64,000 nt of DNA, from the NCBI GenBank assembly GCA_040954595.2, contig CM082585.2, forward strand, positions 6,597,808-6,661,807. The letters are read 5' to 3'. The position numbers were made by a program, and so were the translations under genes. The notes below the pieces were generated by a model. It worked only from the letters and a program-made list of their open reading frames with translations, searched no databases and was not told the origin of the DNA. Below, piece by piece: positions 3,522 through 30,561 of this stretch. Position 1 is the stretch's first letter. The number at the start of each line of letters is the position of its first letter. Source of the DNA: Balanoglossus misakiensis (Eukaryota > Animalia > Hemichordata).

Positions 3522-6500
3522 TTAACTTTCATTATGCTTCAAAAAGTTAATGGCTATTCTTAATGTACAGACTGGTTTAAATATGTGCCATCCATCATTA
3601 TTGTCAAATCTATTGGCCAGTGTGATACACTCTTCAATGACCAAATGGTTAGATTTCACCAGAGTTGACATCTCAGACATAAACCTGTCATTTATTCCAA
3701 AACGACTCTCTGATATAATTACTATCGTAAAGGAATTAAGACTGATAGTCTTAGCCTTCTCAAGGAGAGTGCTGACATATGACTGGATTCCATCACACAT
3801 TGATGACACGGTAATAATGAGCTTTAGTGTGAAATGTTTCACGCTTCTAGACCATTGCTGGTTTGGTATCAAACAGGTCAAATCAGAAGCTTTCCATTTA
3901 CGCAAGGCTAAAGATAAGTATTCTACATGTCTGACTTGCCTTGTGAGAATCATAAATGCATTTGCATTTGCCAGGTTGTTAGACAGCATATCAGTTTCAA
4001 ATTCTGTGACACTGCTACACATATTCAATGCCTCCACAAGATTCTCAGTGTTATCAGCTATGTCTATGAGATTATATCCCTGGATGCAAATAGAATTTAA
4101 CACTGGACTGGAGGCGGATTTCAAAGCAGATAGCAACCATGTTGGAAAGCCTCCAGTATAAAAATGCAACATGAATTTTCTTGTTTGTTTACAGTTCTGG
4201 ATAAACCAACGTAGTGAATCAATTTGTGCATCATTCGTATCAAAGTCTAATACTAGAGACACACACTCTGGACTCTTTTCTATAAGTTTGTCAAATGGTA
4301 ATGGGACTTCACGGCACTGATTCTGTACACCCCACTGAAAATTCTGCAAATGTTTGTTGGAACTAACACTTTGGAATAAATGGGTGATAGCCTGGGCACA
4401 TGTTTCTGTGTTCACCAGTTCACCCCGTTTTAATAACAATATTCCATTCAAGGTATTCAAATGCCATCCTCTGTTCAATGCATTTGCTATTTGCTGAATT
4501 GATTCTAAGGTATCACAATACAATGCCACTGATGTTAAACTAATGCAATGTTCAGTTATTTCCTTAATTACCTGTGTGAAGAAATCTGATCCGTCCCAAT
4601 TCTGTAAATATAAATGTTTGATGCCTTGAACACTGTCATTGTTCTGGGCCATGCTATTCAATAGACTAATTACCTGCCCAACCATTTTCTGGCTAAGTAT
4701 ACATGCACCATACAGGCTACTCTCTATGGCATTCCTTGCATCATGATTGAACATATCATAAGGAAACCAACCACTATAAAAATCATAATCACGTTCACCA
4801 TTATCTAGTATCAAATGATTTGGCATAAATGGTGCTAGGTATTCAATTTTGATATTGGCTTCAAATAAACACTTGCAAATTAATGCAAATTCATCTGTGA
4901 TGTCAAAGTCATTCTGACTACTATACTTACTTTGCATCTTCTCAATCAGAACTTTCATAAAAGGGTCTGCTTTCTGTTTTAAGATGCCAGCAACAAACAC
5001 GCAAACCTGTTTTTCTCTTATAATTCTGTCAAGGGCAGACTCTGATCCATCACTACCAAAAATGTTGGTGATATGCAATGCAGTGAAATATTCAAGCCAG
5101 GTTTTATGGTAGAAAAAGCAACCAGTCTGCAACTTGATTCTAGAAATTCCAGTATCTCTCACTAGTAAGCCTAGTGACAGAATTGTTTTGCTGACAGACT
5201 TTTCATCTATCATCATAGACCCTTGTGAACACACATCATATGCAACACTAGCTAATGCAGCCACTTCATCATTTAAATCATTCAGTATGCTATCAGTCAG
5301 TTCCCTGTTATTCTTGCAACAGAATCTCTTCAAAATACAGTCCAAAATTTCAGAATAAATGTCCGTCAAATTATTCTTGGGGATGGTTTTCTTCTCTTCC
5401 CAAAGCAGACAAACAAATGCTAGATGTAAGGGATTACATAGCAGATCTCGCTTGATGTAGTCTGCAGTGTCTACATCATCATCATCGCCATCATGATACC
5501 ATGGCTTACCATCAGATTCTTTAACAACATCAAGGTTTAACTCTGAAACAAGACTCTTCGCTTGGTTTACTCTCTGACTAAAATACTTGCCTATATACTC
5601 AATTGCATCTTTTGTTGAAAAGCCTTCAATTCTGAAGTGCACCTGACATTTTTTGAGAGCTTCATCACATTCATGAGGTCGTGTTGTTGTGACAACTGTA
5701 CACCATGACAACAATTTCTCCGAGATAATAGGAAGTATATCTGATTTCTCTCTGGATGATGATGTAATTTCATCTAACCCATCAAATATACACAGTACTA
5801 AATTTTGATTTTGTTCAATGTAACCATAAAGATCCTCTTTCTTGATTTTGGCATCCCTAGGAAGTAACTGATGGAAGATGATGTCATCTAATCTCTTTTT
5901 GTCAGAAATGTGTCTCATTTCTAAGAGAAACAGAAGTTTGAATTGTGGTAGTTTGCCCTGTGCCCAATCATATGCTAGCTTCCTACAAAATGTTGACTTT
6001 CCCATTGCTGGAGCCCCCTCAATCCTGATTCGACTGCAAATTAACTGTGGATCTTTCTCTTTAAAAATGTCATGCTCACTTGTGAGAACGCTCCCTTTTT
6101 CAAAAAGTTGTCTTCTGTCAGTTTTGATAACTCTCAGTTTCGTGTAGACTTCAGTGAGACTTAGAGATACACTTTCGTTCCATGGAATTGGTCTGAAATC
6201 GTTGAAGTGTCTTGTATACTTTTGTTGTAAATATTCTATCAACCAATGTATGCTTTCTAAAAACAAAATTGGAAATAAAAAAGAAGCATTAAAGTGATGA
6301 ATGACACCACAGTACTCACACTTCGTGCAAGATCGATTCATGAGGGATTACAAAAATAATGTGATCAAGTCAGGATTTTGAGTATCAATACAGTAATGCA
6401 GTGAACATACTAGAATGAACAGTACTATTGCATGCTGCGATTGCAACTGAGGTTCGTGATTGTACAACACTAGTACACGGCTGAATCTTTCAATCAATGG

Positions 6501-9500
6501 CAACGCGTCCATGTAAAATGTCTGTAATCTCTGATACATTGTATTTTGGTTACCTGATACATTTCCTGGCTGACTGGTTGTGATCAGTTCAGCCAGATCA
6601 TATCTCCCAATGCTACGAAGTAAGTCTGTCAGCAAACCTGTTTTGTCTTCCCCAATGACTTTTCTGTCAAGTAACTTCTCAAACAACTCTGTAGCAAGTT
6701 GAATTCCTTCAATTTCTCTCTTTGGTATTCTCGTTGATCTCATGTTTCTGCACAGGAATTTCATGGATTTAAGTTCATCTGTAATGGTAATTACACAAAA
6801 CAAAATTGTTAAGAATTAATTAATCTGTGAGTTTTTTGTCCCAGAAGCTGTAGAAATCTTAATAACAACCAACTGCTATATAATACACACCTTTCGTTTT
6901 CTTTTATGGGGTTACATTTTTATGTGTAGCCCTATAATTTTACACCATTTTATAATTCCTTATACATGTAGTAAATTTTCAATTACCCATTACCTGACCA
7001 AACATGCAAGTGAACATGGCCTTCATATAAGGACTTAATTCGCACCCTTATTTACATGTGCCTATAGCTGCTTGCATGCATGCAGGGTATTAAACACCAC
7101 TCTTACCAGTTTGCCTAGTATATTGAGACTTTAATTGGTGTATGGTAGGTACAAATGCATGTAATACGACCATCATAATTAGTTTACAGTCTGTTATAAC
7201 TAATACAATCCACTTACCCTGTCCTATTTCATCTGCTATTCTGAGAAGTAACCCAATAAAACGATCTTTACTTCTTTGAGTGTAACTTTCAGTGGCTTGT
7301 ATCTCCTCTGTCCCTTTAAAATTGAAATTTGGAGAAACATGTGAATGTTTGAAAAGATTAACCTTTTTAATTCGATGCACATCATAGTCAGAGCTGTAGT
7401 GTTTAAAATGTAAAAAAATATTATCACTTTAAAACCCCTGACCAAAATCTTTTGAACTATGCTATTAGTCATTATACATCGCAAGCATTTGTGCCCTTGG
7501 AATTTTTAGGTTCAAAATATTTTCCTAGAGGAACATTTATGCTATCTTGTAATTCCAACCTCAACACTTAGCTCTCCCTTTATATCCAGGTTCAACATTT
7601 TATTGGCTACTTTTAAGCTTTAACCATACCAGCCACACCCCTGAATTATAAGTTGTCATTTTTTAAATATACCTGTGCGTGCCTCCTGTATATTTGGTAT
7701 CTGTATTTCATGAGCCCATTCAGAGAGTTGATGCTTAAACCATTTTGTATATTCATGGTTATATTTCTCATGACCTAACACTGCATCATAGTGTCCTGTA
7801 CTGAGCCAACTGATGTAGATATCACATGTAGGACTATCACCATGTCTTGGACTTTGTAACAGAAATGTTGGTTCCATCCCACTGTTCGTACCACCAACCA
7901 ATACATGTATATTGACACACACACGGCGGCTTAAGGCAGCAATTTCTGTTAAACCAGCGCACATACCATCCATGGCAGCTCTCGTCAGGAAATCTTTTGG
8001 ATCTCCTTCAATTACATGCTGGAACTGAGGTAAGTTTTGTCTTATATAGTTCGCAGCCTCTTGTCTGAGAATACCGTGTAAAGACTGACCGCCGTACATG
8101 GATTCTGCAATGGCACGATAGAGGCAGTTTCCATCTGGAATAATGTCGTATCTGTACAAACCCTGGCTTTGTAAGAATGCATCCTGTACTTCCTGTTCTA
8201 GGACTGTTTTGTTACTTTTAAGCTTTTGGTGTAGGGTTTTGATGGATTCTATAGGTGTCCGCAGCGTATGGAAAATCTCTGTAAAGTATACATGATAGTT
8301 CATTATGTCATGTAGTAATTGAAAAAAAAACTACTTGTGGCCGTATGTTTATATGTACGTAACCTATAAAGTAGTAAGACATGGTGGCTTGCCTTCAATA
8401 TTAAACTTTCAGGAGTTTCTACAGGACAAAATATTGTTTTTATTCAAAATTTACAGTCTGACCAAATACATAAGAGGTTCAAGGGTCAGTGCCAGACTCC
8501 TCCAACATCGTCATCACATCATCATCATCATCATCATCATTCATTATCATCATCATCATTAAACAGTCACACAGGACAAAATATTGTTTTTATTCAAAAT
8601 TTACAGTCTGACCAAATACATAAGAGGTTCAAGGGTCAGTGCCAGACTCCTCCAACATCGTCGTCACATCATCATCATCATCATCATCATTCATTATCAT
8701 CATCATCATTAAACAGTCACACATAAAATAACTTGGTTCCACTATAAATGCTGCCCTTAAACTAAGCTAAACTTTCATTTCTCAATATCAGTTAAGTTTA
8801 ATATTTACCTGGTGTATGTCCTCTTGTCACAGTTGTTGGTATTTTGTCTGGAGTAGCAATCTGCTCATACATTATTTCTGTAGGCTGAATTTGCCCTGAT
8901 TGTGACACCGACGTAGAGGGTGGCCTCACTGATGCTTCAGTTCGTCCAGATGAATAAGTGCCGGAAGACTGGACCGTTTTTTGTGGTAGTTGCACTAGTT
9001 GCAGCTGTGAGAAAAGTTGTTGGCATGGCAATGGTTGTTGTTGGAAGGTCTGTGTTGGCATTGCTGATCCTGAATAGCCTTGATGTTCACGTGTGTGAGC
9101 CATAATTGTTTGTGGCTCTGTATGCTGGTGTTGCTGGGGCATGTGAGCCTGTTGACTGATATTCTGCATAACCCTCACTTCAGATTTCCCTGGCTTATGT
9201 AACTGTTGTGGTATTGAAGATGGGGCATGCAGATGCTGTGTCTGTGATGCTGACTGAGGTAACCAATGTTGCATTGCCTGGCTGTCTGAAAACTGGTGTT
9301 GTAGTGGCCGAAATGAAGACTGTTGACCATCAGTTACTGACATATCTGGCTGCCACAGGTAATTGTGCTGCAATGATTCGGTTGTCAGATCTTGGGGGTT
9401 GCTACTTTCTTCCTAAAAATTAATACATGTATGTACAAATTGTGAAACAAACCGAATACTCTGCTCATTTTCTCATGGTGTAGATACAGAAATACACACT

Positions 9501-9910
9501 AACATGGTGATCGAATATCTGCAGTCTCTGTTCGGCCTGTATCTGGAATCTTTTCTAAATATGTACTTAATATTTAATTCATTGCACCTTAATTCTTACA
9601 TACAACTACCATAAACCAGCCACAAAACAAACAAAAACGGCTTAGGTCCTCTGGGGTATACTTTTCACAGGTTTTGCAATAGTCTTAAAAATACATTAGC
9701 AGAAAGGATACATATCATAGATATGATGCAAAGATTTATACAAATTTAAGTTTACTGCAGATGACCATGTTGAGATTTTATCAATTATTGATGTATGATT
9801 TGTCTCATTGACTTCTATGAGAAAATGCATCATTGGCTCCACCACATGAAAAAGGTAATTAATGTAAAATTGCCTAAAAAAAATGCTAATACCTGTGAAT
9901 ACTGTTCCAT
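3522..9910 (-). CDS. NLR copy 1: Q-rich linker-OTU(OTUD1-like)-DED-NACHT-LRR-like, ~1427 aa
   Basis: In-frame GT-AG exons 9910-9893 (MEQYSQ), 9412-8809, 8278-7673 (OTU), 7313-7218 + 6778-6554 (DED) and 6256-3522 (NACHT/LRR). NACHT motifs: Walker A GAPAMGKST, Walker B CIFDGLDE, sensor TTRP, NPLHL, FYHKTWLEYF. Confidence 0.85.
6554..7313 (-). CDS. Death effector domain exons of NLR copy 1
   Basis: FIGLLLRIADEIGQ|DELKSMKFLC...LFEKLLDRKVIGEDKTGLLTDLLRSIGRYDL, including the DED RxDL motif. Confidence 0.8.
7673..8278 (-). CDS. OTU deubiquitinase exon (OTUD1-like) of NLR copy 1
   Basis: Cys box IIPDGNCLYRA and His box ISWLSTGHYDAV; from memory these resemble OTUD1 IIPDGNCLYRA...LSWLSNGHYDAV. 606-nt phase 1-1 exon. 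Confidence 0.88.
8421..8720. repeat. 150-bp tandem duplication containing a (CAT)n microsatellite
   Basis: ACAGGACAAAATATTG... begins at both 8421 and 8571. Confidence 0.85.
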
Positions 9911-10552
9911 GTTGGTATCCCAGGTATGAAGTCTTCTTGGAGATTTTTTTCCTTTTCTTTTTCTTCTTCATCACCTCCTTTTACTTTTTGGATAACTTTA
10001 AATACTCAGAGTTACTCTGAGTCAGTAAATGACGATCTGTAGTGTTTGTTTTCCTGTCAAGAGAAGATGTTAAAAATTTTACAGACAGAGATTTCAAATG
10101 ACCTTATATCGATCCTTTAAAGTTTTACAACTTTGTCTGTTGACTTAAAGAAAATTGGGGTGGGTGGAGGTCAAAGGTCTTGGAAACAAGTAATCTACTG
10201 TTCGCGGTGTCTGGGCTAACATTATTGCAACCGTAGGATTAGATATGGGTTGACAGTCCCCAGTTACTTGCACTTTCCGGACAGGTTGTTTTTGTGAATG
10301 TATTGGATGTTCTTGAATAGAAAAAGGTATAAGGCTGTCTTTTTATTTCACACATTTCTTTTTCAGTTTTGGGGTTGAACATTCCTGAATATTTCAATGA
10401 CGTACTCAAGACTTATGATGAACAAAGTTAATCACACTGCAGCGAATACCATGAGTACAAACGCAATAACAAGTGGAAGAAATTCAAGAAAATCATACAT
10501 CTTTGCTGTTCAAGTTTCTGCATAAATAAAAGCTGATGTGTATCCATACTTA

Positions 10553-11358
10553 GGCTGCATTCACAAACACCTCTGGAGGGGGGGGGGGGGGGGCAGGAGA
10601 ATTGAGGGGGGGGGGGATTTGAAAAAATTGAGGGTATGTAAGGGGGGGATTTGAAATAATTTAGGGACTGAAAGGGGGGGACTTGAAAACTTTAACGACT
10701 AAATATTTATTTTGAGTCCACAAAAATGCAGTTTCGCGCCCTTTATTTTACAAAATTTTCTAATGTGGGAGGGGGACACCCCCTCCCACACCCACCCCCC
10801 TCCATTCATCAACACCTTTCAATCATTGACTGGCTTATCTAGTGTCCCAGGTCAGGGGACTTGCCCCCACCCCATGATAACTTTGAGCGACGACGGTTAA
10901 ATTTGTCCTCCCCAACATACCGGTAGTTGAGTTAATTTGCTTTTGCCGGGTTCATTAAAATGCAGCTTTGAGCTCTGTATTTTAGAAAATCTTCTTACGT
11001 GGGAGGGGGACACCCCCTTCCAAACCCATCCCCTTCAATTCTCGGTTTACAATGTCTCCCAACACAGAATACAAATATATGTACTTAAAAAATAAAAACA
11101 ATGTTCAGTTTTAATACCCACTGATGAGGAGAAACATCAGTTTCAAATTCTTTTCATGGGAGCGCTGTTTTTCTTTTTTTAAGATAGATAGGTGATGTGT
11201 TTTGCTCTGTGAAAGAAGATGGGGGGGATTTCAAAATTTTGGCAGTTCGGAAGGGGGGGATTTGAAAATATTGGCAGTTCGGAAGGGGGGCATGTGAAAA
11301 TTAGCGGTAAAAAAAATTGAATTCTCCCGCCCCCCCCCCCCCCTTTGTGAATGCAGCC
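10553..11358. mobile_element. PIF/Harbinger-like MITE (~806 bp)
   Basis: TTA|GGCTGCATTCACAAA ... TTTGTGAATGCAGCC|TTA, with a 3-bp TTA TSD. The empty site ACTTAAG is present in units 2 and 3. Confidence 0.85.
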
Positions 11359-11845
11359 TTAAGTTCAAGAAAAAGATGAATATTAAACCAGACTTTATAA
11401 ATCTGACAAGTGATTTCCTGTTTTCAGGGAATATTGGAAATTTCAACATTGTGAGCATGTCAGAACTCCAAATATGCGGGCAAGATCACATCTTGCAAAT
11501 TAATCTCAGCCAAGCACATTGGTAATTAAATTTATAAGGTGTGAACTTGCCCGCATAGTTGAAGTTCTCAAGCTCACAATGTTGAAATTTTACCTGAAAC
11601 TAAAAAAGGCGATGTCGTATTTTCAGGCAATATTGGAAATCACTTTTTGAGGAGACTGTGACATGTTGTTCACTGTTTACAACAGTGAGTTTGATGCACT
11701 TAATTGCTGATTAATCTTTGGATCTGACTCTGAAACTAGCACTGGAGGGTCAGAATCAGAATCAGTATCAGCTGGAAAGGTCACGCAAAGACGAGGGTCA
11801 AGTGAATCTGACAAAAAACGTCTAGCACATAGATGTATTTATACT

Positions 11846-12563
11846 TGTGATGTCATATGCAAAAACCCCTAAATGTCTGTTAATTTATATGCACCTCTGA
11901 GATAAAACTTTGTCAGAAGTATTTTCTGGACGTTTCTGCAGCCCCACTTTTTTTCTCGCTACATGTAGGCCTGCATACACAGGTGCACAGTGAATATTTG
12001 CACGTCAGTCATAATACTCTGGCTTTCAGAAGTATGTGATAAACACAGATTCAGCCTTTCAGAACTACACGATAAATCAATACATTCTTCTGTTGTTCAG
12101 TACCGATACATGGGGTCAAATCGACTTGATAGGTTTGCAAGCAGGCGTCCTTGGGGGGCATGTGGTCTTATCATACCAGTTGGTTAATCATTGGACATTT
12201 TATAGCAGGATATCCTGTGATGTCATATGCAAAAACCCCTAAATATTTGTTAATTTATATGCACCTCTGAGATAAAACTTTGTCAGAAGTATTTTCTGGA
12301 CGTTTCTGCAGCCCCGCTTTTTTTCTCGCTACATGTAGACCTGCATACACAGGTGCACAGTGAATATTTACTTGTCAGTCATAAAACTCCGGCTTTCAAA
12401 AGTATGTGATAAACACAGATTCAGTCTTTCAGAACTACACGATAAATCAATACATTCTTCTGTTGTTCTGTACCGATATTTCTAGACGTTCCTCCAGCCC
12501 CGCTTTTTTTCTTGCTACATCATACATGTAGGCCTGCATACACAGGTGCACAGTGAATATTTG
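11846..12563. repeat. Local tandem duplications in intron 1 of NLR copy 1
   Basis: TGTGATGTCATATGCAAAAACCCC occurs at ~11846 and ~12216. GCCTGCATACACAGGTGCACAGTGAATATTT (or a near match) occurs three times here, versus once in the other units. Confidence 0.75.
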
Positions 12564-13411
12564 CAGTATTGTTATTTTGCGGGTCAGCGTGTCAAAGTGC
12601 AGGCCAATTTGCGGGTCGCCCCCAAAACGATAGAAATGTGACTTCTGTGTATGTGCAATTGTTTCTTGGGATAAAATGAACCCAAAATATATCCCCATTT
12701 CCTTTTAGACCATAATAACTTTCGTGGAAAATACATCTTTGTCAATAATTACAGTGGAATCGACCGGTGACCGAGGATGTGTAGTACGTGGCACTGCCAC
12801 CAGTGACGTCTTGCTTTCCCGCCATGCAGTCAAGATGTCCGACATGGGTGATCTTATTCCTTAGTATCGTTGTTCATATGCAAAGTATAATGATCTGTAT
12901 TGTAGAAGATTGTCGTGAGTGCATCTATGACTCAAGCTGCGTGTCACCCACTCAACCTAACCCCATGTAATATGGTTCTACGCGTACATACGTACAGTAC
13001 GTGCACTGCATATGTACACATATATATAGCTTTATAGTCCTAGCCGTATTTAGTCCGCTTTGCTTCCCAAACTACATGTGGTATTTATTATTATTACTCT
13101 CCAGGCTGCCACATTGTCACAGAAGTGTTGCACCAGTGAATGTATAGTGGCAAAGCGGAAATCGATAATGAATTTGGTTATCATAGTAGTAATCTACATG
13201 TTTTTTTCCGCTAAGCTACCATCCATTTTTAAAATATACTGTTTCCCTACAAAGCCTTCTTGGTTTTTCCACATTTTGTTGACATATGAAGAGGATTTGA
13301 TTTTCATAATGTGTTATCCCTCGAGCTTTGTGAAATTCGAGGACTTAAAATTGGCCCGCATTGACCTGCCGTGGCCCGCAACCCGCATGACCCACACTAT
13401 AGTTACACTCG
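12564..13411. mobile_element. hAT-like non-autonomous element (~850 bp)
   Basis: Absent from units 2 and 3. Flanked by duplicated (G)AATATTTG (8-9 bp), starts CAGT, and has subterminal GCGGG/CCCGC motifs in inverted orientation. Confidence 0.6.
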
Positions 13412-15135
13412 AATATTTGCACGTCAGTCATAATACTCCGGCTTTCAGAAGTATGTGATAAACACAGATTCAGCCTTTCAGAACTACACGATAAATCAAT
13501 ACATTCTTCTGTTGTACTGTACCGATACATGGGGTCACATCGACTTGATAGGTTTGCAAGCAGGCGTCCTCGGGGGGCGTGGTCTTATCATACCAGTTGG
13601 TTAATCATTGGACATTTAGTGTACCAGATATACATATTCAATGATTAACCAACTCCTCCACCTACAGTAGAGAAGCCATCTTTTGCTAACCAGGAACTTT
13701 TAATTTTACACCCTCTAGACAACAAAATAACTTTAATATGAGTTCATAGTGTACAGTGTTCTAATAAAGTGATCTGGCTTTAAACTTACCTTTACAGTTG
13801 GTTGATGAAGCTCTCTCACTGCTGTTTGTCTCGCTTCAATGGCAGAACAAGATGGCAGATTAGTAATAGCTTCAAAATGGCGTTGTCAAAAAAACCAACC
13901 AACAAAAAACTTGTACTATATGAAGACCATAGAAGGTTGGTATAGGGACTTGGACGTATCAGTGGTAGTGTATACCTATCTGACGACGATGCCTCACTGG
14001 TGTTGGAATTTTGGCTGTCAATGGCAGATTAAATGTGGAACCCAGTCACGACGTTTTGCACATAGATCTACGGTACACAGGAATGATTTATAGAGTAGAC
14101 TTTTATTTGCATTTTGCCATTCAAACATCTCAAGTCCCATGTCCACATCTCATGATAATGATAAGCTTAGTTTTATTTGCCTTACAACTTTGTGAATATA
14201 TTTCTGAAAATACAGCATAAGCAAATTCATTAAAGCCCCAAATATCTGCCATTTTTTGCATTATAAAACAATACGTTGGCTAACAAAGCTTTAACAGTTC
14301 TGTACACCGCAAGCAAGATGGTTGGTGGGTTTCCTTTTCATACACAACAGTTTTACAACGATCTGTGTCTTTTATACTTCCCAAATGAATATTCTACCTA
14401 TCAGAATTGATATAATTTAACAGCACGCTACAGCCATCAAATGATGTAGTTGGGAAAACTGCATATTTCTTTATAAAGCATTTAATTAAAGAAAACAATG
14501 TCATTCTGAATAATTATTTTCTGTATTTTAGTGCTTACTGCATACCATAATATTATTGTAGATGATTTGGAAATGTAACTCTTTGCAATGGGGTCGGAGG
14601 CGTATAATTGCAATAAATAGACACTTAGACACATAAAATGGTATTACCAATCAAAAGTATGATTTATTGAAACTTGACTCTCCTGAATACAATAAAACAG
14701 TACTTGGATACAATCTTGGAAAACAACTTTTGTCTTAAATATCTATCTTCAAGAAAGGTGTCCTTCTTAGAGCAGTGTCTGCAAAGGCACTATAATAAGA
14801 TACACAGTATACTTTCCCATCACAATCTACGAATTTCAAAGACCATCGCATGAATTAATTGCGATTTGTGAAGGTACGGTGAATTAAATGACCCATGATT
14901 TGGAAATGGTATTACAGTCGAACCTGTCTATAGTGGCCACTGGAGGGACATTCCTAAACTGTCCTTTATAGACAGGTGGCCTTTATATACAGGTCAATGA
15001 ATGCACATGTATATTGCACAGGGACGGTAACAAAGTGGCCACTATATACTGGTTTGATTGTATTTCATGAATAATCTTCAGTAATTGATTGTTCACTCAC
15101 AATAGGAAATGTTTGTTTGCATTTATATTTTACAG

Positions 15136-15716
15136 AACCCGTGTTGTCTGGGCTTGATGGCAAAATGATTCAGTTTGATGGGGATTACACGTTGCAGTCC
15201 TTTAAAACTATACCTAAGCTGACTGATTTATCAGTGTGCTTTTGGTTTCAAATCACCGAAAACAGTGGGGGCTGGTTCACCTTTGAGACACAGGACAAAT
15301 ACGTACTGGCATTTTGGCGCGACACTGAGCTGATGGTGCAGTCGGGCAATTGGAATGGCGAATCGCTCTCTGTCGACGACGGCCAATGGCATCACGTGTG
15401 TGTCACGTGGAAGTCCGACGGCGGGCTGTGGCAGGTCTTCAAAGATGGCGCCCTAGCTACCAGCGGTGCTGGTCTCGGCGACAAATTCGAATTAGCCGCA
15501 GGAGGAAAGTTTATCCTTGGAGCATCGAGACAGTACAAGGTCAAAGGCAACATGGCGCTGTTTAATGCATGGGACCGGGTGCTCAGCAGTGATGAAGTCA
15601 GTGATGTGAAGTCTTCCTGTGATGGTGACTACGAGGGGAATATGTTGTCATGGAAACAGGGTTTAGCACCACCGGAGAGTAAATACACGGCCGATTTTAG
15701 CCACTGTACCGGCTAG
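15136..15716 (+). CDS. Pentraxin-domain exon, copy 2
   Basis: Same acceptor and WHHVCVTWKS signature as copy 1; ORF intact. Confidence 0.85.
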
Positions 15717-16667
15717 CTAATCAACGTCGATTATAGTAAACAATATCATGTGTTTGGAATGTATGCATGCACATATCCAAGATATACATGATTAAAATCG
15801 TCTTAAATATTGCATGATTATAATATTGCATGACTTGATTAAAAATATTAGTTGTTTGTTGGATTATATGTGAAGTAACTTGAAACTTTGTTGCTCTCTC
15901 GATATCGCGAAAATTTTAACTCGCGAAAATAAAGCGTTTTTACATACAGACATATTCACAAAATGCAGACTGCAGATGTATAGGCTCACAGATTCCCTCT
16001 ATAAATGTACACAGAACAAAATGGGATTCTTAAAAATAATAATCTTTATTTCATCATATTATATGCCATTATCTCATTAAGTATTGTTGAAATCAAGCAA
16101 ATAAAATACAACTGTGACAAATTGTAAAAGAAGGAATTCATTCTAGTTTTAATAAAAACACTACATGTATGCTTATAATTACCATAGTGAGAGTACATAG
16201 TATTTCTCTTGATGTATTGTCTATAATTTACAAATCTTGGAAAATGACTTGACATATCCATTGAGTAACAAATAAGAAACACAGTGTATAATACATCATA
16301 AAACAATTGGGCTTTGTGATATTGCACCTGTAGACGGTTGGGTTAAACCTTCATAAACAACAACAGCAACAATTGGGTACTTATCCAAGACAAAAATATA
16401 TATTTACAATAGTCACAGATCAGAATACAATTAAGTCAGTTGTACAATGAAAACTTTAAGAGCAATGACTTGTCAATGTCTTTGTTTTTTATTCTACATG
16501 ACAAGATATTTAAAAGCTAAAACTACCACATTTTCAATCTTTCAGACCCCCTTCAGAATGTATGGTCCAACCCTAATAATATTCTGCAAAGAAATGTGCC
16601 CTGGTTACTCATACCATTCATTTGTCTTTCTCATAAAGTAACGGCTGCTGGAATTTACTGTGGCTGT

Positions 16668-19600
16668 TTAACTTTCATTATGCTTCAAAAAGTTAATGGC
16701 TATTCTTAATGTAGAGACTGGAACAGACATTAGGTGTCCATTTGTATCGGCAAATATATTGGCCAGAGTGATACACTCTTCAATGAACACATAGTTTGAT
16801 TTCACCAGAGTTGACATCTCAGACATAATCATGTCATTTATTCCAGAACCAATCTTTGATAAAAGTACTATCGTAAAGGAATGAAGGCTGATAGTCTTAG
16901 CCTTCTCAAGGAGAGTGCTGACATATGACTGGATTCCATCACACATTGATGACTCAGTAATAATGAGCTTTAGCGTGAAATGTTTCATGCTTCTAGAACA
17001 TTGCTGGTTTGGTATCAAACAGGTCCAATCAAAAGCTTTCCATTCATGCAAGGCTAAAGTTAAGTATTCTACATGTCTGACTTGCCTTGTGAGAGTCAAT
17101 GCATTTACCAGGTTGAAAGTATAAAACACATCAGTTTCAAATTCTGTCACACTGCTACACATATTCAATGCCTCCACGAGATTCTCAGTGTCATCAGCTT
17201 TGTCGCTGAAATCACACCCCAGGATGCAAATAGAATTTAACACTGGACTGGAAGATTTCAAAGCAGATAGCAACCATGTTGGAAAGCCTTCAGTATAATA
17301 TTGCAACATGAATTTTCTTGTTTGTTTACAGTTCTGGATAAACCGACTTAGTGACTCAGTTTGTGCATCATTCATACCAATGTCGAATACTAGAGACACA
17401 CACTCTGGACTCTTTTCTATAAGTTTGTCAAATGGTAATGGAACTTCATGGCATTGATGCTCTACACCCCACTGAAAATTCTGCAAATGTTTGTTTGAAC
17501 TAACATTTTGGAATAAATGAGTGACAGCCTGGGCACATGTTTCTGTGTTCACCAGTTCACCCCTATCTAATGAAAACATTCCATCCAAGGTATTCAAATG
17601 CCATCCTCTGTTCAATGCATTTGCTATTTGCTGAATTGATTCTAAGGTATCACAAGGCAATGTCACTGATGTTAAACTAATGCAATGTTCAGTTATTTCC
17701 TTAATTACCTGTGTGAAGAAATGTGATCTGTACAAATTATGTAAATATAAATGTTTGATGCCTTGAACACTGTCATTGTTCTGGGCCATGCTATTCAATA
17801 GACTTGTTACCTGCCCAACCGTTTTCTGGCTATAAAGTGTACATGCACAATACAGGCTACTCTCTATGGCATTCCTTGCATCATGATTGAACATATAATT
17901 ATACCAACCACTATGAAAATCATAATTATATTCATCATCATCTAGTATCAAATGATTTGGCATAAATGGTGCTAGGTATTCAATTTTGATATTGACTTCC
18001 AATAAACACTTGCAAATGATTGTAAATTCATCTGTGATGTCAAAGTCATCCTGACTACTATACTTACTTTGCATCTTCTCAATCAGAACTTTCATAAAAG
18101 GTTCTGCTTTCTGTTTTAAGATGCCAGCAACAAAAACGCAAACCTGTTTTTCTCTTATAATTCTGTCAAGGGCAGACTCTGATCCAACACTACCAAAAAT
18201 GTTGCTGATATGCAATGCAGTGAAATATTCAAGCCAGGTTTTATGGTAGAAAAAGCAACCAGTCTGCAACTTGATTCTCGAAATTCCAGTATCTCTCACT
18301 AGTAAGCCTAGTGACAGAATTGTTGGGCTTACAAACTTTTCATCTATCATCATAGACCCTTGGGAACACACATCATATGCAACACTAGCTAATGCAGCCA
18401 CTTCATCATTTAAATCAGTCAGTTCCCTGTTATTCTTGCAACAGAATCTCATCAAAATACAGTCCAAAATTTCAGAATAAATGTCCGTCAAATTATTCTT
18501 GGGGATGGTTTTCTTCTCTTCCCAAAGCAGACAAACAAATGCTAGATGTAATGGATTACATAGCAGATCTCGCTTGATGTAGTCTACATCATCATCATCA
18601 TCATCATCATGATACCATGGCTTACTGCCAGACTCTTTAACACTATCAAGGTTTAACTCTGAAACAAGGCTGTCTGCTTGGTTTACTCTCTGACTACTAA
18701 AATACTTGTGTATATACGCAATTGCATCTGTTGTTGAAAATCCATCAATTCTGAAGTGTGCATGACAAACTTTGAGAGCTTCATCACATTCATGAGGTCG
18801 TGTTGTTGTGACAACTGTACACCATGACAACATTTTCTCTGAGATAATGGGAAGTATGTCTGATTTCTCTCTGGATGATGATGTAATTTCATCTAACCCA
18901 TCAAATATACACAGTACATGTACTAAATTTTGGTTGTGTTCAATGTAACCATAAAGATCTTCTTTCTTGATTTTGGCATCAGTAGGAAGCAACTGATGGA
19001 AGATGATGTCATCTAATCTCTTCTTGTCAGAAACGTGTCTCATTTCTAAGAGAAACAAGAGTTTGAATTGAGGTAGTTTGCCCTGTGCCCAATCATATGC
19101 TAGCTTCCTACAAAATGTTGACTTTCCCATTGCCGGAGCCCCTTCAATCCTGATTCGACTGCAAATTAACTGCGGATCTGTCTGTTTAAAAATGTCATGC
19201 TCACTTGTGAGGACACTCCCTTCTTCAAAAAGTTGTCTTCTGTCAGTTTTGATAACTCTCAGTTTCGTGTAGACTTCAGTGAGACTTAGAGATACACTTT
19301 CGTTCCATGGAATTGGTCTGAAATCGTTGAAGTGTCTTGTATACTTTTGTTGTAAATATTCTATCAACCAATGTATGCTTTCTGAAACAATAATTGTGAA
19401 TAAAAAAGAAGCATTAAAGCGATGAATGACACCACAGTACTCACACTTCATGCAAGATCGATTGATGAGGGATTACAAAAATAATGTGTTCAAGTCAGCA
19501 TTTTGAGTATCAATGCAGTAATGCAGTGAACATACTAGAATGAACAGTACTCTTGCACGCTGCGATTGCAACTGAGGTCGGAGGTTGCACAACACTGGAA

Positions 19601-22600
19601 CACGACTGAATCATTCAATCAATGGCAATACCGCCGTATAAAACCTCTAAAATCTCAGATATATTGTATTTTGGTTACCTGATACACTTATTGACTGACT
19701 TGGAGTAATCAGTTCAACCAGATCATATCTCCCAATTCTATGAAGTAAGTCTGTCAGCAAACCTGTTTTGTCTTCCCCAATGACATTTCTGTGAAGTAAC
19801 TTCTCAAACAACTTTGTAGCAAGTTGAATTCCTTCAATTTCTCTCTTTGGTATTCCCGTTGATTCCATGTTTCTGCACAGGAATTTCATGGATTCAAGTT
19901 CATCTGTAATGGTAATTACACAACACAAAATTGTTAAGAATTAATCTGTGAGTTTTTTGTCCCAGAAACTGTAGAAATCTTAATAACCAACCAACTGGTA
20001 CATAATACACACCTTTCGTTTTCTTTTATAGGGTGACATTTTTATGTGTAGCCCTATAATTTTACACCATTTTATAATTCCTTATAGTAAATTTTCAATC
20101 ACCCATTACCTGACCAAACATGCAAGTGAACATGGCCTTCATATAAGGACTTCATTCACACCCTTATTTACATGAGCCTATAGCTGCTTGCATGCATGCA
20201 GGGTATTAAACACCACTCTTAGCAGTTTGCCTAGTATATTGAGACTTTAATTGGTGTATGGTAGGTACATATGCATGTAACACCACCATCATAACAATAG
20301 TTTACAGTCTGTTACAATTAATACAATCCACTTACCCTGTCCTATTTCATCTGCTATTCTGAGAAGTAATCCAATAAAATGATCTTTACTTCTTTTAGTG
20401 TAACTTTCAGTGGCTTGTATCTCCTCTGTCCCTGTAAAATTTAAATTTGGAGAAACATTTAAATGTTTGAAAAGATTAACCTTTTTAAGTCAATGCACGT
20501 CATAGTCAGAGCTGTATAAGTGTTTAAAGTGTAAACAAATATTGGCTACTTTTAAGCTTTAACCATACCAGCCACACCCCTGAATTATAAGTTGTCATTT
20601 TTTAAATACCTGTGCGTGCCTCCTGTATATTTGGTATCTGTATTTCATGAGCCCATTCGGAGAGTTGATGCTTAAACCATTTTGTATATTCATGGTTATA
20701 TTTCTCATGACCTAACACTGCATCATAGTGTCCTGTACTGAGCCAACTGATGTAGATATCACGTGTAGGACTATCACCATGTCCTGGACTGTGTAAATGA
20801 AACCTTGGTTCTCCTCCACTGTTCTCACCACCAACCAATTCATGTATATTAATGCGCAGACTGTGGCTTAAAGCAACAATTTCTGTTGACCCAGCCCACA
20901 CACCATCCATGGCAGCTCTTTGCAGGAAATTCTGTGGATCTCCTTTAATTGCATGCTGGAACTGAGGTAAGTTTTGGTTGAGGTATCTCACAGCCTCTTG
21001 TCTGAGAATGCCATGTTTAGACTGATCGCCGTACAAGGATTCTGCAATGGCACGATACAGGCAGTTTCCGTCTGGAATAATGTCGTATCTGTACAAACCA
21101 TGTCTTTGTAAGAATGCATCTTGTACTTCCTGTTCCAGTACAGTTTTGTTACCTTTAAGTTTCTCACACAGGGTTTTGATGAATTCTCTAGATGCCGGCA
21201 ATACATCCAGAATCTCTGTAAAATATACATAAGAGACAGCCACCTGTAATCTTAGTTATTGACAAAGCATAATTTGCGCATCAGTTAAGTCGGGAACATG
21301 AGCAGTATATAAGTCCTTCCAAAGTCATTATTTGAAAATATTTTCATAAAATATTTTTTACAGTATATCTCAGGAAATCTTGGTGGCCATATGAAACTTT
21401 CACGTGTTTCTTAATAGGACAAACTGGAGACTTTCATAAAAGAAAACTGAAAACTCACATGTTCGAAAGAGCATACAGTGCGGTTTAACCATGAGCGTCA
21501 TTGGGCAAAATTTCTTTTTGGATTTTGGCGCTATATAAACTTTGTTGTTGTTGTTGTTGTTGACAAACTGAATTTTTCAAACCAATGTCAAGGGTCAGTG
21601 CCACACTCTATCATCACCATGCATTATCATGAGACATTAAGGCCAAAAAAATAGTTTGTTTCTCATCCTAGGAATCTTGCAAAAATGATGCGGTGACACG
21701 GTTTTTTTTCGTCATGCATTATCTTGAGAAATAAAAGAACTTGCTTCTATGATAAATGTTGCCCATAGACGAGTAGGAGCTTAAAAATACACATCAGAAC
21801 TATGTGCGTACAAAACTACACAACCTAATCCTACACAAACTGTAGTTCTGGCTACAAAACATTGGACCAAGTCACCTGTTGTGGAGTTGTATAAGTACAC
21901 TAACATAAACCTTCATCTCTGATATCAGTAACTTAAATATTTACCTGGTGTATTCCCCTTTGTCACAGTTGTTGGTATTTTGTCTGGAGTAGCAATGTGC
22001 TCATACTTTCTTTTTTTAGGTGGACGTTGTGATTGTAGCTGTGACGTAGATTGCCTCACTGACGCTTCAGTTTGTTCAAATGAATAGGTGGCGGAAGACC
22101 GGTCCATTTGTTGGGGTTGCTGCACTGGTGGCAGTTGTGGAAAAGGTTGTTGGAATGGCAATGGTTGTTGTTGGAAGGTCTGTATTGGCATTGGTGATCC
22201 TGGATAGCCTTGATGTTCACGTGTGTGAGCTATAATTGTTTGTGGCACTGTATGTGGGTGTTGCTGGGGCATGTGAGCCTGTTGACTGGTATGCTGTATT
22301 ACCCTCACATGATATTTCCCTGGCTGATGTAACTGTTGTGTCGCTGAAGGTGCGACTTGTTGCTGCCTTGACTGTGTTATTAGAGGATGTATCCCACAAT
22401 CTTTTGGCAGCCTGCCTGAAAAGTGGCCTTGTTGTTCAGGAGAGGATTGATGTAGCCCATGCATTGTGTGGGTGCCTGAAGATTGGTGTTGCTGTTGCAC
22501 AAATGAGGGTTGTTGACCATCAGTTACTCTAGATAGCCCTGACTGATGTAACTGTTGTGGTATTGAAAATGGGACCTGCAGATGCTGTGCCTGTGACGCT

Positions 22601-23778
22601 GTCTGAGGTATCCCATGTTGCATTGCCTGGCTGTCTGAAAACTGTGGGCCCCCAGTTACTGACATATCTGGCTGCCACAGGTAATTGTGCTGCAATGATT
22701 CAGTTGTCAGATCTTGGGGGTTGCTACTTTCTTCCTAAAAATTAATACATGTATTTACAAATTGTGAAACAAACCGAATACTCTGCTCGTTTTCTCATGG
22801 TGTAGATACAGAAATACACACTAACATGATGATCGAATATCTGCAGTCTCTGTTCTGCCTGTATCTGGAAACTTTTCTAAATATGCACTTAGGCTGCATT
22901 CACAAACATCTCTGGAGGGGGGGGGGCAGGAGAATTGAGGGGGGGGATTTGAAAAAATTGAGGGTATGTAAGGGGGGGATTTGAAATAATTTAGGGACTG
23001 AAAGGGGGGGGACTTGAAAACTTTAACGACTAAATATTTATTTTGAGTCCACAAAAATGCAGTTTCGCGCCCTTTATTTTACAAAATTTTCTAATGTGGG
23101 AGGGGGACACCCCCTCCCACACCCACCCCTCCATTCATCAATACCTTTCAATCATTGACTGGTTTATCTAGTGTCCCAGGTCAGGGGACTTGCCCCACCC
23201 CATGATAACTTTGAGCGGCGACGGTTACATTTGTCCTCCCCAACATACCGGTAGTTGAGTTAATTTGCTTTTGCCGGGTTCATTAAAATGCAGCTTTGAG
23301 CTCTGTATTTTAGAAAATTTTCTTACGTGGGAGGGGGACACCCCCTCCCAAACCCACCCCCTTCAATTCTCGGTTTACAATGTCTCCCAACACAGAATAC
23401 AAATATGTGTACTTAAAAAATAAAAACAATGTTCAGTTTTAATACCCACTGATGAGGGGAAACATCAGTTTCAAATTCTTTTCATGGGAGCGCTGTTTTT
23501 CTTTTTACAAGATAGATAGGTGATGTGTTTTGCTCTGTGAAAGAAAATGGGGGGGGGGGGATTTCAAAATTTTGGCAGTTCGGAAAGGGGGGATTTGAAA
23601 ATATTGGCAGTTCGGAAGGGGGGCATGTGAAAATTAGCGGTAAAAAAAATTGAATTCTCCCGCCCCCCCCTCCAGAGGTGTTTGTGAATGCAGCCTTAAT
23701 ACATCGTACCTTACATCTAATTAAATACATCTAAAATTGCCTAAAACAAAATGCTAATACCTGTGAATACTGTTCCAT
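16668..23778 (-). CDS. NLR copy 2: Q-rich linker-OTU(OTUD1-like)-DED-NACHT-LRR-like, ~1482 aa
   Basis: In-frame exons 23778-23761, 22734-21945, 21215-20610 (OTU), 20431-20336 + 19903-19679 (DED) and 19381-16668. All NACHT motifs are intact. Confidence 0.85.
20610..21215 (-). CDS. OTU deubiquitinase exon (OTUD1-like) of NLR copy 2
   Basis: IIPDGNCLYRA, DGVWAG and WLSTGHYDAV motifs; 606-nt phase 1-1 exon. Confidence 0.88.
22892..23695. mobile_element. PIF/Harbinger-like MITE, same family as 10553-11358
   Basis: TTA|GGCTGCATTCACAAACA ... TGTTTGTGAATGCAGCC|TTA; internal sequence nearly identical to the copy-1 element. Confidence 0.85.
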
Positions 23779-26444: not shown

Positions 26445-29400
26445 CATGAAGGCGCGACCTTGCACATTTATACGATATCGGATATTTATCGTCTAGTATC
26501 GACACTAGAAAATATCGCTTATATCCTCCAGTATCGTCGAGTATCGTCTAATTTATTTCACTGGACCTGTGCCGACCATGGCATGTTCACCAAGAAAAAT
26601 ATCGTCTAGTATCGTCTAATTTGAAAGTTGTTGTTTAAGTACAGTCTACTTTAACGTTTTAGACGATACTAGACTCTAGTATCGATAGTATCGATACTAT
26701 CGGATATTTTTGAGGTCCGACATAGTCAGGAAGCAGGCAAAGTTGTTGTTAAAGTACAGTCTAATTTAACGTTTTTAGACGATACTAGACTCTAGTATCG
26801 ATAGTATCGATACTATCGGATATTTTTTAGGTCCGACATAGTCGAGAAGCAGGCAAAGTTGTTGTTAAAGTACAGTCTACTTTAACGTTTTAGACGATAC
26901 TAGACTCTAGTATCGATAGTATCGATACTATCGGATATTTTTGAGGTCCGACATAGTCGGGAAGCAGGCAAAGTTGTTGTTAAAGCACAGTATCGTCTAA
27001 TTTCTTTGACTAGACACCCTTGTCGCCCATTACATGCAAACCATCATTGGACAAATGTCGTATGCTCACCAAGAAAAATATCCGATACTATCGATACTAT
27101 CGATACTAGAGTCTAGTATCGTCTAATTTTTTTGACTAGACACCCTTGTCGCCCATTACATGTAAACCATCATCGGACAAATGTCGTATGCTCACCAAGA
27201 AAAATATCCGATACTATCGATACTATCGATACTAGAGTCCAATATCGTCTAATTTCTTTGACTAGACACCCTTGTCGCCCATTACATGTAAACCATCATT
27301 GGACAAATGTCGTATGCTCACCAAGAAAAATATCCGATACTATCGATACTAGAGTCTAGTATCGTCTAATTTTTTTGACTAGACACCCTTGTCGCCCATT
27401 ACATGTAAACCATCATCGGACAAATGTCGTATGCTCACCAAGAAAAATATCCGATACTATCGATACTATCGATACTAGAGTCTAGTATCGTCTAATTTCT
27501 TTGACTAAACACCCTTGTCGCCCATTACATGTAAACCATCATTCGACAAATGTCGTATGCTCACCAAGAAAAATATCCGATACTATCGATACTATCGATA
27601 CTAGAGTCTAGTATCGTCTAATTTTTTTGACTAGACACCCTTGTCGCCCATTACATGTAAACCATCATTGGACACATGTGGCAAAGTTGTTGTTAAAGTA
27701 AAGTCTAGTTTAACGTTTTAGACAATACTAGACTCTAGTATCGATACTATCGGATATTTTTGAGGTCCGACATAGTCGGGAAGCAGGCACAGTTGTTGTT
27801 AAAGTACAGTCTACTTTAACGTTTTAGACGATACTAGACTCTAGTATCGATACTATCGGATACTTTTGAGGTCCGACATAGTCGGGAAGCAGGCAAAGCT
27901 GTTGTTAAAGTACAGTCTAGATTAACGTTTTAGACGATACTAGACTCTAGTATCGATAGTATCGATACTATCGGATATTTTTGAGGTCCGACATAGTCGG
28001 GAGGCAGGCAAAGTTGTTGTTAAAGTACAGTCTAGTTTAACGTTTTAGACGATACTAGACTCTAGTATCGATAGTATCGATACTATCGGATATTTTTGAG
28101 GTCCGACATAGTCGGGAAGCAGGCAAAGTTGTTGTTAAAGTAAAGTCTAGTTTAACGTTTTAGACAATACTAGACTCTAGTATCGATAGCATCGATACTA
28201 TCGGATATTTTTGAGGTCCGACATAGTCGGGAAGCAGGCAAAATTGTTGTTAAAGTAAAGTCTAGTTTAACGTTTTAGACGATACTAGACTCTAGTATCG
28301 ATAGTATCGATACTATCGGATATTTTTGAGGTCCGACATAGTCGGGAAGCAGGCAAAGTTGTTGTTAAAGTACAGTCTAGTTTAACGTTTTAGACGATAC
28401 TAGACTCTAGTATCGATAGCATCGATACTATCGGATATTTTTGAGGTCCGACATAGTCGGGAAGCAGGCAAAGTTGTTGTTAAAGTACAGTCTAGTTTAA
28501 CGTTTTAGACGATACTAGACTCTAGTATCGATAGTATCGATACTATCGGATATTTTTGAGGTCCGACATAGTCGGGAGGCAGGCAAAGTTGTTGTTAAAG
28601 TAAAGTCTAGTTTAACGTTTTAGACGATACTAGACTCTAGTATCGATAGTATCGATACTATCGGATATTTTTGAGGTCCGACATAGTCGGGAAGCAGGCA
28701 AAATTGTTGTTAAAGTAAAGTCTAGTTTAACGTTTTAGACGATACTAGACTCTAGTATCGATAGTATCGATACTATCGGATATTTTTGAGGTCTGACATA
28801 GTCGGGAGGCAGGCAAAGTTGTTGTTAAAGTAAAGTCTAGTTTAACGTTTTAGACGATACTAGACTCTAGTATCGATAGTATCGATACTATCGGATATTT
28901 TTGAGGTCCGACATAGTCGGGAAGCAGGCAAAGTTGTTGTTAAAGTACAGTCTAGTTTAACGTTTTAGACGATACTAGACTCTAGTATCGATAGTATCGA
29001 TACTATCGGATATTTTTGAGGTCCGACATAGTCGGGAAGCAGGCAAAGTTGTTGTTAAAGTAAAGTCTAGTTTAACGTTTTAGACGATACTAGACTCTAG
29101 TATCGATAGTATCGATACTATCGGATATTTTTGAGGTCTTACATAGTCGGGAAGCAGGCAAAGTTGTTGTTAAAGTACAGTCTACTTTAACGTTTTAGAC
29201 GATACTAGACTCTAGTATCGATAGTATCGATACTATCGGATATTTTTGAGGTCCGACATAGTCGGGAAGCAGGCAAAGTTGTTGTTAAAGTTCAGTCTAC
29301 TTTAACGTTTTAGACGATACTAGACTCTAGTATCGATAGTATCGATACTATCGGATATTTTTGAGGTCCGACATAGTCGGGAAGCAGGCAAAGTTGTTGT

Positions 29401-29490
29401 TAAAGTACAGTCTAGTTTAATGTTTTAGACGATACTAGACGATAAATATCCGATATCGTATAAATGTGCAATGTCGCGCTGTCCTCCATG
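26445..29490. mobile_element. Non-autonomous TIR element (~3.05 kb) filled with satellite repeats; superfamily unassigned
   Basis: AAAG 4-bp TSD (26441-26444 and 29491-29494); empty site CAAGAAAGGTG in the other units. ~55-bp TIRs CATG...TTGCACATTTATACGATATCGGATATTTATCGTCTAGTATCG. Confidence 0.85.
26625..29440. repeat. Composite satellite: 3 x ~115-bp unit X, ~5.5 x ~126-bp unit Y (26990-27680), ~15 x 115-bp unit X
   Basis: Periods read directly: TTGAGGTCCG at 27981, 28096, 28211...; TATCGTCTAA at 26991, 27117, 27243... Some units lack a 9-bp subrepeat. Confidence 0.92.
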
Positions 29491-29980
29491 AAAGGTGTCC
29501 TTCTTAGAGCAGTGTCTGCAAAGACACTAGATACACAGCATACTTTCCCATCACAATCTACGAATTTCAAAGACCATCGCATGAATTAATTAAGTTTAAT
29601 CTGTTTCTAATATAAGGCTTTTGCAAACTCCATTTTCTATACACCTCAATTAAAGGACACTGGCGCACACAGATGCATAGATATTTCCACTGACAGTGGC
29701 CGTTGCGATTTGTGAAGGTACGGTGAATTAAATGACCCATGATTTTGGAAATGGTATTACAGTCGAACATGTCTATAGTGGCCAGTCGAGGGACATTCCT
29801 AAACTCGCCTTTATAGACAGGTGGCCTTTATATACAGGTCAATGAATGCACATGTATATTGCACAGGGACAGTAACAAAGTGGCCACTATATACCTCTTT
29901 GATTGTATTTCAGGAATAATCTTCAGTAATTGATTGTTCACTCCCAATAGGAAATGTTTGTTTGCATTTATATTTTACAG

Positions 29981-30561
29981 AACCCGTGTTGTCTGGGCTT
30001 GATGGCAAAATGATTCAGTTTGATGGAGATTACATGTTGCAGTCCTTTAAAACTTTACCTAAGCTGACTGATTTATCAGTGTGCTTTTGGTTTCAAATCA
30101 CTGAAAAGAATGGGGGCTGGTTCACCTTTGAAACACAGGACGAATACGTACTGGCATTTTGGCGCGACACTGAGCTGATGGTGCAGTCCGGCAATTGGAA
30201 TGGCGAATCGTTCTCCGTCGACGACGGCCAATGGCATCACGTGTGTGTCACGTGGAAGTCCGACGGCGGGCTGTGGCAGGTCTTCAAAGATGGCGCCCTA
30301 GCTACCAACGGTGCTGGTCTCGGCGACAAATTCGAATTAGCCGCAGGAGGAAAGTTTATCCTGGGAGCATCGAGACAGTACAAGGTCAAAGGCAACATGG
30401 CGCTGTTTAATGCATGGGACCGGGTGCTTAGCAGTGATGAAGTCAGTGATGTGAAGTCTTCCTGTGATGGTGACTACGAGGGGAATCTGGTGTCATGGAA
30501 ACAGGGTTTAGCACCACCGGAGAGCAAATACACGGCCGATTTTAGCCACTGTACCGGCTAG
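29981..30561 (+). CDS. Pentraxin-domain exon, copy 3
   Basis: Same acceptor and signature as copies 1 and 2; ORF intact. Confidence 0.85.

Follow-up and report, generated by a model that had tools for sequence, protein, structure and literature searches.

An OTUD1-derived OTU domain predicted upstream of the DED in an acorn worm NLR subfamily

Why should genes for NLR immune receptors carry an exon for an OTU-type deubiquitinase? The question is raised by a 64,000-nucleotide stretch of the Balanoglossus misakiensis genome (assembly GCA_040954595.2, contig CM082585.2, forward-strand positions 6,597,808 to 6,661,807), hereafter the window, which contains three tandem copies of a 13–15 kb unit, each with a minus-strand NLR gene (P1, P2 and P3). 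Read as spliced models, P1 and P2 have the predicted domain order Q-rich–OTU–DED–NACHT–LRR. We confirm that the OTU-DED-NACHT-LRR gene structure, which an earlier note on this DNA had proposed for two paralogs, is real at the DNA level with splicing as predicted, and it is very probable that the fusion is actually made. The reading that we favour, tentatively and at somewhat less than an even chance, is that these genes belong to an acorn worm NLR subfamily in which the OTU domain, in P2 at least, would be a weak deubiquitinase without linkage selectivity whose target is the receptor's own complex.

P1 (9910–3522, minus strand) and P2 (23778–16668, minus strand) each comprise six open coding exons, encoding 1427 and 1482 amino acids respectively with no internal stop codons (Table 1). 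All 10 introns of the two models have GT-AG boundaries, and the three P1 junctions given in the earlier note (8809>8278, 7673>7313 and 6554>6256) proved exact, GT-AG and in frame. Exons 3, 4 and 5 are all phase 1-1 in both genes. The random-phase expectation for five in-frame junctions is about 1/240, a rough figure, given that the splice sites had been selected and that paralogs do not count as independent cases. A stronger argument for fusion over chance is that each spliced model gives one unbroken BLASTP match to the Ptychodera flava RefSeq protein P0121 across the OTU/DED/NACHT junctions, with 49% identity along a continuous alignment of P1 residues 219–1302. Pfam profiles for OTU, DED and NACHT all score above cut-off in both genes, which upholds the identification of the first as an OTU domain by hidden Markov model; the DED is divided between exons 4 and 5. 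No RHIM-like tetrads were found in the Q-rich exons.

The same exon boundaries bear on a very different account of the locus, in which no fusion arises: a short Q-rich–OTU transcript would end with the OTU exon, skipping of that exon would give a DED-NACHT-LRR protein, and gene finders would have misjoined the two in all three species. Read-through past the OTU donor in P1 does soon meet an in-frame stop and an AATAAA, but AATAAA is absent from the corresponding P2 intron, and the donor 3' of the OTU exon is kept in both genes and restores the frame. Two P. flava proteins with a common N-terminus, P0001 and P0123, could be taken in the same sense, the one ending after the OTU domain and the other reaching DED and NACHT, and no transcript-derived fused protein was present among 15 profile matches. 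Against this, four independent RefSeq models share one domain order, and the linker aligns with that of P0121 and P0123. Querying RNA sequencing runs with window positions 4500–8300 listed none, which counts neither for nor against. We consider separate transcripts very unlikely.

Sequence comparison identifies the OTU domain as OTUD1-derived, while the P1 and P2 proteins themselves are not OTUD1. The best solved match to the P2 domain is OTUD1 (4BOP; Table 1), the next being OTUD5 at E=3e-10, and among the best 120 of 260 longer OTU homologues three P. flava proteins come first, followed by vertebrate OTUD1 and unnamed records of the same grade. Identity to chordate OTUD1 is about 44% over the catalytic domain. 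The phylogeny suggested by the earlier note groups the domain with chordate OTUD1, as that note had supposed, with support of 88/82 in a 45-row tree and 100/100 against one outgroup clade in a 24-row tree. The Cys, His and Asp, described earlier as intact, are all present in P1 and P2, as is the aromatic residue after the His, and neither protein has the replaced catalytic Cys that marks a pseudo-deubiquitinase. A comparison with 10 chordate OTUD1 sequences gives 34 invariant columns, of which P2 keeps 31 and P1 keeps 28; at a Trp found in all 10, P1 carries a Cys. A transposon origin (Helitron or MULE) was considered and rejected: the OTU domains of such elements score far lower (E 1e-16 or weaker), and the MULE OTU in the tree falls elsewhere.

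Alignments reveal no counterpart of OTUD1's ubiquitin-interacting motif (UIM), which is C-terminal there, 3' of the OTU domain in P1 or P2. The accessible part of one study describes UIM-less OTUD1 as less active and non-specific, with 14.5 times more enzyme being needed (PMC3705208). Because the UIM is absent and UIM-less OTUD1 is non-specific, the K63 preference that the earlier note had carried over from OTUD1 is by analogy expected to be lost in P1 and P2, and is not to be assumed.

The remainder of each protein has the features of an NLR. The Walker A and B motifs of the NACHT domain are intact, and there is no Pfam match to an LRR in P1 or P2. In an AlphaFold2 model of P1 built from a 27-row alignment (mean predicted local distance difference test score, pLDDT, 76.8, with the last 40 residues under 50; predicted template modelling score, pTM, 0.69), about 15 strand-helix repeats follow the helical domains, and the top Foldseek matches, over their length, are NLRC4 (4KXF, E=1.1e-25), NOD2 and NLRP3. 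The LRR-like C-terminus noted earlier is thus clear at the level of predicted structure, and P1 and P2 combine the structural hallmarks of an NLR, namely NACHT, predicted LRR and an N-terminal death-fold domain.

Variation among the three paralogs is concentrated on one face of this predicted solenoid: 60 of 170 columns at or just after predicted strands are variable, as against 51 of 258 elsewhere in the repeats (Fisher p=0.0005). Codon models give a ratio of nonsynonymous to synonymous substitution (omega) of 2.95 for the predicted strands (p=0.002 against 1, likelihood-ratio test), 1.31 at the other repeat positions (p=0.37) and 0.44 across the NACHT module (p=0.004); the selection tests on the LRR have a thin basis, being made on three sequences that probably exchange DNA. 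With strands placed by the model, the pattern matches functional receptors whose ligand face undergoes diversifying selection, and argues against pseudogenes. It is the LRR, and not the OTU domain, that is diversifying.

This genome is not alone in having the architecture, which also occurs in uncharacterised RefSeq models from two other acorn worm species. For the OTU exons as for the NACHT exons, the nearest proteins among the matches listed are from acorn worms, and the order OTU-DED-NACHT occurs in four models: XP_070532842, XP_070536456 and XP_070537049 of P. flava, and XP_077991469 of Glandiceps talaboti. Their OTU domains are 37–48% identical to those of the window. A fifth related model has OTU-DED and two have OTU alone; the uncharacterised P. 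flava model XP_070532830 is counted among the family relatives. Of 309 proteins compared, 39 match NACHT, 273 match OTU and 4 match both, and the 15 matches obtained by profile search among 7990 scored candidates included no additional fused protein. The homologue searches were not exhaustive, the representative-library matches being the best 150 of 2730. In the ESM Atlas, where only clusters of at least 50 were searched, the clusters nearest to P0002 were NACHT clusters and none with OTU appeared among the rows shown, a result that speaks for neither novelty nor absence.

P3 lacks the OTU exon, which blastn and tblastn of the window find twice only, in P1 and P2. A NACHT tree of 23 rows (excluding nine NACHT rows and three short matches) places the six OTU-bearing NLRs in one eight-row subclade with P3 and the likewise OTU-less P0124 (86/92, not starred). 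OTU presence changes three times on this tree, matching one gain and two losses, and in the 24-row OTU tree the nine domains of the family cluster together (92/96, not starred) within the OTUD1 group. The simplest reading of these trees would be a single OTU capture followed by losses, and the exon appears optional, given its absence from P0124 as from P3. The captured domain may be the only OTUD1-type copy left in acorn worms, because no stand-alone, UIM-bearing acorn worm OTUD1 was found among the named matches. In P. flava, the eroded OTU domains of P0121 and P0123 are missed by Pfam and found by phmmer with the window domain (E below 1e-44); with eroded OTU and unrecognised LRR, Pfam annotation undercounts the family. 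P0001 and P0123, which have consecutive accessions, have 125 of 126 N-terminal residues in common and OTU copies that are 83% identical; they may represent alternative OTU exons or else closely related paralogs.

P1 and P2 have the only OTU domains found in the family with a catalytic Cys. In all seven related OTU domains outside the window the catalytic position is Ser; across the 273 OTU matches it is Cys in 247, Ser in 8 and unparsed in 18. The Ser forms keep only 24–27 of the 34 invariant columns, and the Trp loop is deleted in four of them. As reported in the available text of PMC13437307, C320S abolishes OTUD1 activity; given this and the seven Ser domains, catalysis would not be what kept the fusion in those lineages. 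A single clade of Ser forms is not rejected (approximately unbiased test, p-AU 0.149), and the tree is compatible with the Cys having been lost separately two or three times, or lost once and restored by reversion. Working as well as disarmed versions of the domain likely coexist in the family. Repeated Cys>Ser change is also known in OTUD4 homologues outside receptors, according to the accessible sections of PMC4654579.

Between P1 and P2 the OTU exon has an omega of 0.57 (p=0.04), and its catalytic core alone gives 0.66, indistinguishable from neutral (p=0.22). Synonymous divergence (dS) of the exon is 0.24–0.31, and both genes have it open, at the same length and with the Cys kept. This divergence is uneven: dS is 0.31 in the first 450 bases (150 codons) compared with 0.03–0.12 in the last 150 bases and the other exons, and intron 2 cannot be aligned between the two genes. 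On these grounds we infer that P1 and P2 are mosaics, produced most simply by unequal crossing-over or conversion. The near-neutral core might also indicate a tolerated passenger, a symmetric exon acquired by shuffling, harmless within a flexible N-terminus, decaying and often skipped. The phase 1-1 boundaries, in-frame skipping and loss in P3 and P0124 are consistent with this, as is the erosion of the Ser forms in differing ways. Such decay is however hard to match to an exon that is open and equal in length in P1 and P2 despite a dS of about 0.3, that retains 31 of 34 invariant columns in P2 and that persists, at 37–48% identity, in the fused models of two other species. We regard a passenger as quite unlikely.

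The Ser forms bring us to the main rival, an integrated bait. Here the OTU domain would mimic a host deubiquitinase or grip ubiquitin, a pathogen factor that binds, modifies or cuts it would switch the NLR on, much as in plant NLRs with integrated domains, and catalysis would be irrelevant and lost over time. Such a role could account for Cys>Ser in seven of seven relatives, from two species of different genera, while the fold and His-loop region are recognisable, and the different history of the first 150 OTU codons (dS 0.31 against 0.05–0.12 for the remainder of the gene; Fisher p=1.4e-6) would fit a module exchanged between copies. Inactive OTUD1 C320A is moreover reported to bind K63 di-ubiquitin still, with a Kd of about 40 uM (PMC6172466, accessible part). 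On the other hand, the diversifying signal lies in the LRR, P1 and P2 both keep their catalytic residues, and the loss of the Trp loop from four Ser forms is contrary to a kept ubiquitin groove. The three NLR genes of the window share one orientation and each has its own DED, which speaks against a sensor-helper pair, although the OTU-less P3 could be a helper partner. We also know of no such pathogen factor. Finally, recurrent Cys>Ser arises in OTUD4 homologues that are not receptors, as far as the available text of PMC4654579 goes. We see a bait as possible but doubtful. Of the two roles that the earlier note had offered, enzyme or bait, the window copies thus favour the first and the relatives a non-catalytic one. 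A combination of both, in which an NLR family captured an OTUD1-type enzyme and is turning it into a decoy, with one lineage still active and the others carrying Cys>Ser bait for factors aimed at ubiquitin signalling, seems to us unlikely.

The reading that we favour, a weak deubiquitinase acting within the receptor complex, would begin with the entry of the OTU exon into one NLR subfamily, once, before the Ptychodera/Glandiceps split, followed by its loss from some copies (P3, P0124) and its disarming by Cys>Ser in others. The diversifying LRR strands fit ligand sensing, and from knowledge of the family we infer oligomerisation upon ligand binding: ligand at the LRR would free the NACHT domain, the freed receptor would oligomerise through it, and the clustered DEDs would draw in DED-bearing adaptors or caspases. 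The oligomer might then substitute for the lost UIM in bringing ubiquitin chains to the OTU domain, which is the most speculative step. The OTU domain would trim ubiquitin on the receptor complex and so set its threshold, as an optional accessory and not as part of the receptor core. A brake is more likely than a trigger because OTUD1 is described, in the accessible portion of PMC13437307, as mainly a negative regulator that acts on RIPK1/RIPK3 chains.

A series of observations weighs against this reading. Foremost are the seven Ser domains, and with them the conclusion that something other than catalysis kept the fusion in those lineages. Within the window, P1 has lost the invariant Trp and keeps 28 of the 34 conserved columns, the catalytic core evolves at a rate indistinguishable from neutral, and P3 does without the exon. 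The cost of a missing UIM, in terms of the enzyme required by OTUD1, is large. As for the fusion, skipping the OTU exon leaves the frame intact in P1 and P2, the stop and AATAAA of P1 follow close behind it, two P. flava OTU models (P0001 and P0151) stop before the DED, and every fused form is a gene model predicted by computer. Whether the domain would act as a brake or as a trigger is judged by analogy with OTUD1.

Comparison with known systems places P1 and P2 between several of them. With the death-fold NLRs of metazoans (the DED-NACHT-LRR proteins of invertebrate deuterostomes) they share the DED, the NACHT Walker A/B motifs, the helical domains, an LRR-type solenoid and tandem expansion, but they add an enzyme domain upstream of the DED. 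The accessible part of PMC3879445 limits the N-terminal domains of sponge, sea urchin and amphioxus NLRs to death folds, with OTU unmentioned there. Chordate OTUD1 is alike in its catalytic domain, its Cys and His loops and a low-complexity region upstream, which is Gln-rich in P1 and P2 and Ala/Pro/Gly-rich in OTUD1; it differs in having a UIM, in standing outside any NLR and, from P1, in its conserved Trp. The P. flava and G. talaboti models match in domain order and NACHT subclade and differ in that all have Ser for the catalytic Cys and two are too eroded for Pfam OTU. The OTUD4-subfamily pseudo-deubiquitinases (Drosophila Otu and CG3251) resemble these relatives in their repeated Cys>Ser change after duplication, as described in the available text of PMC4654579, but belong to another OTU subfamily and are not part of a receptor.

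Plant NLRs carry integrated host-protein domains that serve as decoys, and sensor-helper pairs are common among them. P1 and P2 share with these the fusion, on predicted splicing, of a non-canonical host domain into a receptor, its arrival by shuffling, its gain and loss among paralogs and, in their relatives, catalytically dead versions; they are unlike them in their NACHT class of NTPase, in the apparent lack of a paired helper in the window and in that no effector is known. The earlier note knew of no described OTU-DED-NLR, and likewise we found no published description of the OTU-DED-NACHT-LRR architecture in the literature searched, which largely excludes subscription journals. Nor did we find a paper on activity of Drosophila Otu that depends on its low-complexity region. 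The fused architecture is present yet unremarked in databases.

The third gene and the surrounding sequence show further rearrangement. P3 has five exons encoding 1821 amino acids with no internal stops; its NACHT domain is above the Pfam cut-off and its DED is recognised by alignment. The start of its intron 2 resembles P2 intron 2 and the end resembles P2 intron 3. Tandem units of about 162 bases have enlarged the Q-rich exon of P3, its frame intact, to 797 codons, and the Glandiceps DED-NACHT protein P0133 likewise has a repeat-rich linker. The last intron of P3 holds a retroelement-like insertion with a 451-amino-acid gag-like open reading frame (ORF) and a 336-amino-acid tyrosine-recombinase-like one (a weak Pfam match, E=0.1), together with split direct repeats in the order A...B-A-B, a layout that we take to be that of the Ngaro/DIRS group. 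The insertion is likely non-autonomous, since the ORF list shows no long reverse-transcriptase ORF within it. About 30 bases separate it from the downstream acceptor of the NACHT-LRR exon, a position from which it could affect P3 splicing. Each tandem unit also has a pentraxin/laminin-G-like ORF on the plus strand, tail to tail with the NLR gene (by Pfam, the first copy being the one tested). An array of tandem units of about 115 bases lies between the second and third copies, and a separate 153-amino-acid open frame has no Pfam match.

Table 1. Coordinates of the predicted exons of P1, P2 and P3 and of other features within the window.
Feature	Position	Strand	Basis or remark
P1 exon 1, coding part	9893..9910	-	predicted ATG at 9910; P2 and P3 begin with the identical 18 bases
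P1 exon 2, Q/S/P-rich low-complexity, 18% Gln	8809..9412	-	spliced model
P1 exon 3, OTUD1-like OTU, 606 nt, phase 1-1	7673..8278	-	Pfam OTU E=7.6e-13
P1 exon 3 catalytic codons	Cys 8126-8124; His 7793-7791	-	Cys at the conserved Trp position; UIM absent
P1 exon 4, linker and first DED helix, phase 1-1	7218..7313	-	matches DED start of P0121/P0123/P0124
P1 exon 5, remaining DED, phase 1-1	6554..6778	-	Pfam DED E=3.6e-14, profile positions 14-77
P1 exon 6, NACHT (Walker A/B intact), about 15 predicted LRR-type repeats and stop	3522..6256	-	Pfam NACHT E=2.3e-26
P2 exon 1, coding part	23761..23778	-	spliced model
P2 exon 2, Q-rich, 20% Gln	21945..22734	-	spliced model
P2 exon 3, OTUD1-like OTU, 606 nt, phase 1-1	20610..21215	-	Pfam OTU E=4.8e-16; 4BOP E=6.8e-37
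P2 exon 3 catalytic codons	Cys 21063-21061; His 20730-20728	-	no UIM
P2 exon 4, linker and first DED helix	20336..20431	-	spliced model, P0121 alignment
P2 exon 5, remaining DED	19679..19903	-	Pfam DED E=4.7e-14
P2 exon 6, NACHT, LRR-type repeats and stop	16668..19381	-	Pfam NACHT E=9.6e-24; 87% identity to P1
P3, paralog without OTU	42732-42715, 42313-39922, 39274-39164, 38582-38358, 34144-31425	-	exon 2 = Q-rich tandem repeats
P3 Q-rich exon	39922-42313	-	tandem units
P3 last-intron insertion	34176-38085	-	retroelement-like
Pentraxin/laminin-G-like ORFs	1945-2586, 15075-15716, 29920-30561	+	Pfam, first copy
Tandem array	26624-29440		about 115-base units
Open frame, 153 amino acids	52224-52685	-	no Pfam match

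The ubiquitin ligases and deubiquitinases that regulate animal NLRs are normally separate from them, whereas P1 and P2 are predicted to carry a ubiquitin eraser within the receptor itself. The family provides its own natural controls, with an OTU domain that is intact in P2, damaged in P1, missing from P3 and Ser-substituted in two other species. It would thereby make two ideas testable: that a DED platform has its threshold set by ubiquitin editing in cis, and that integrated decoys evolve from host enzymes in animals as they do in plants.

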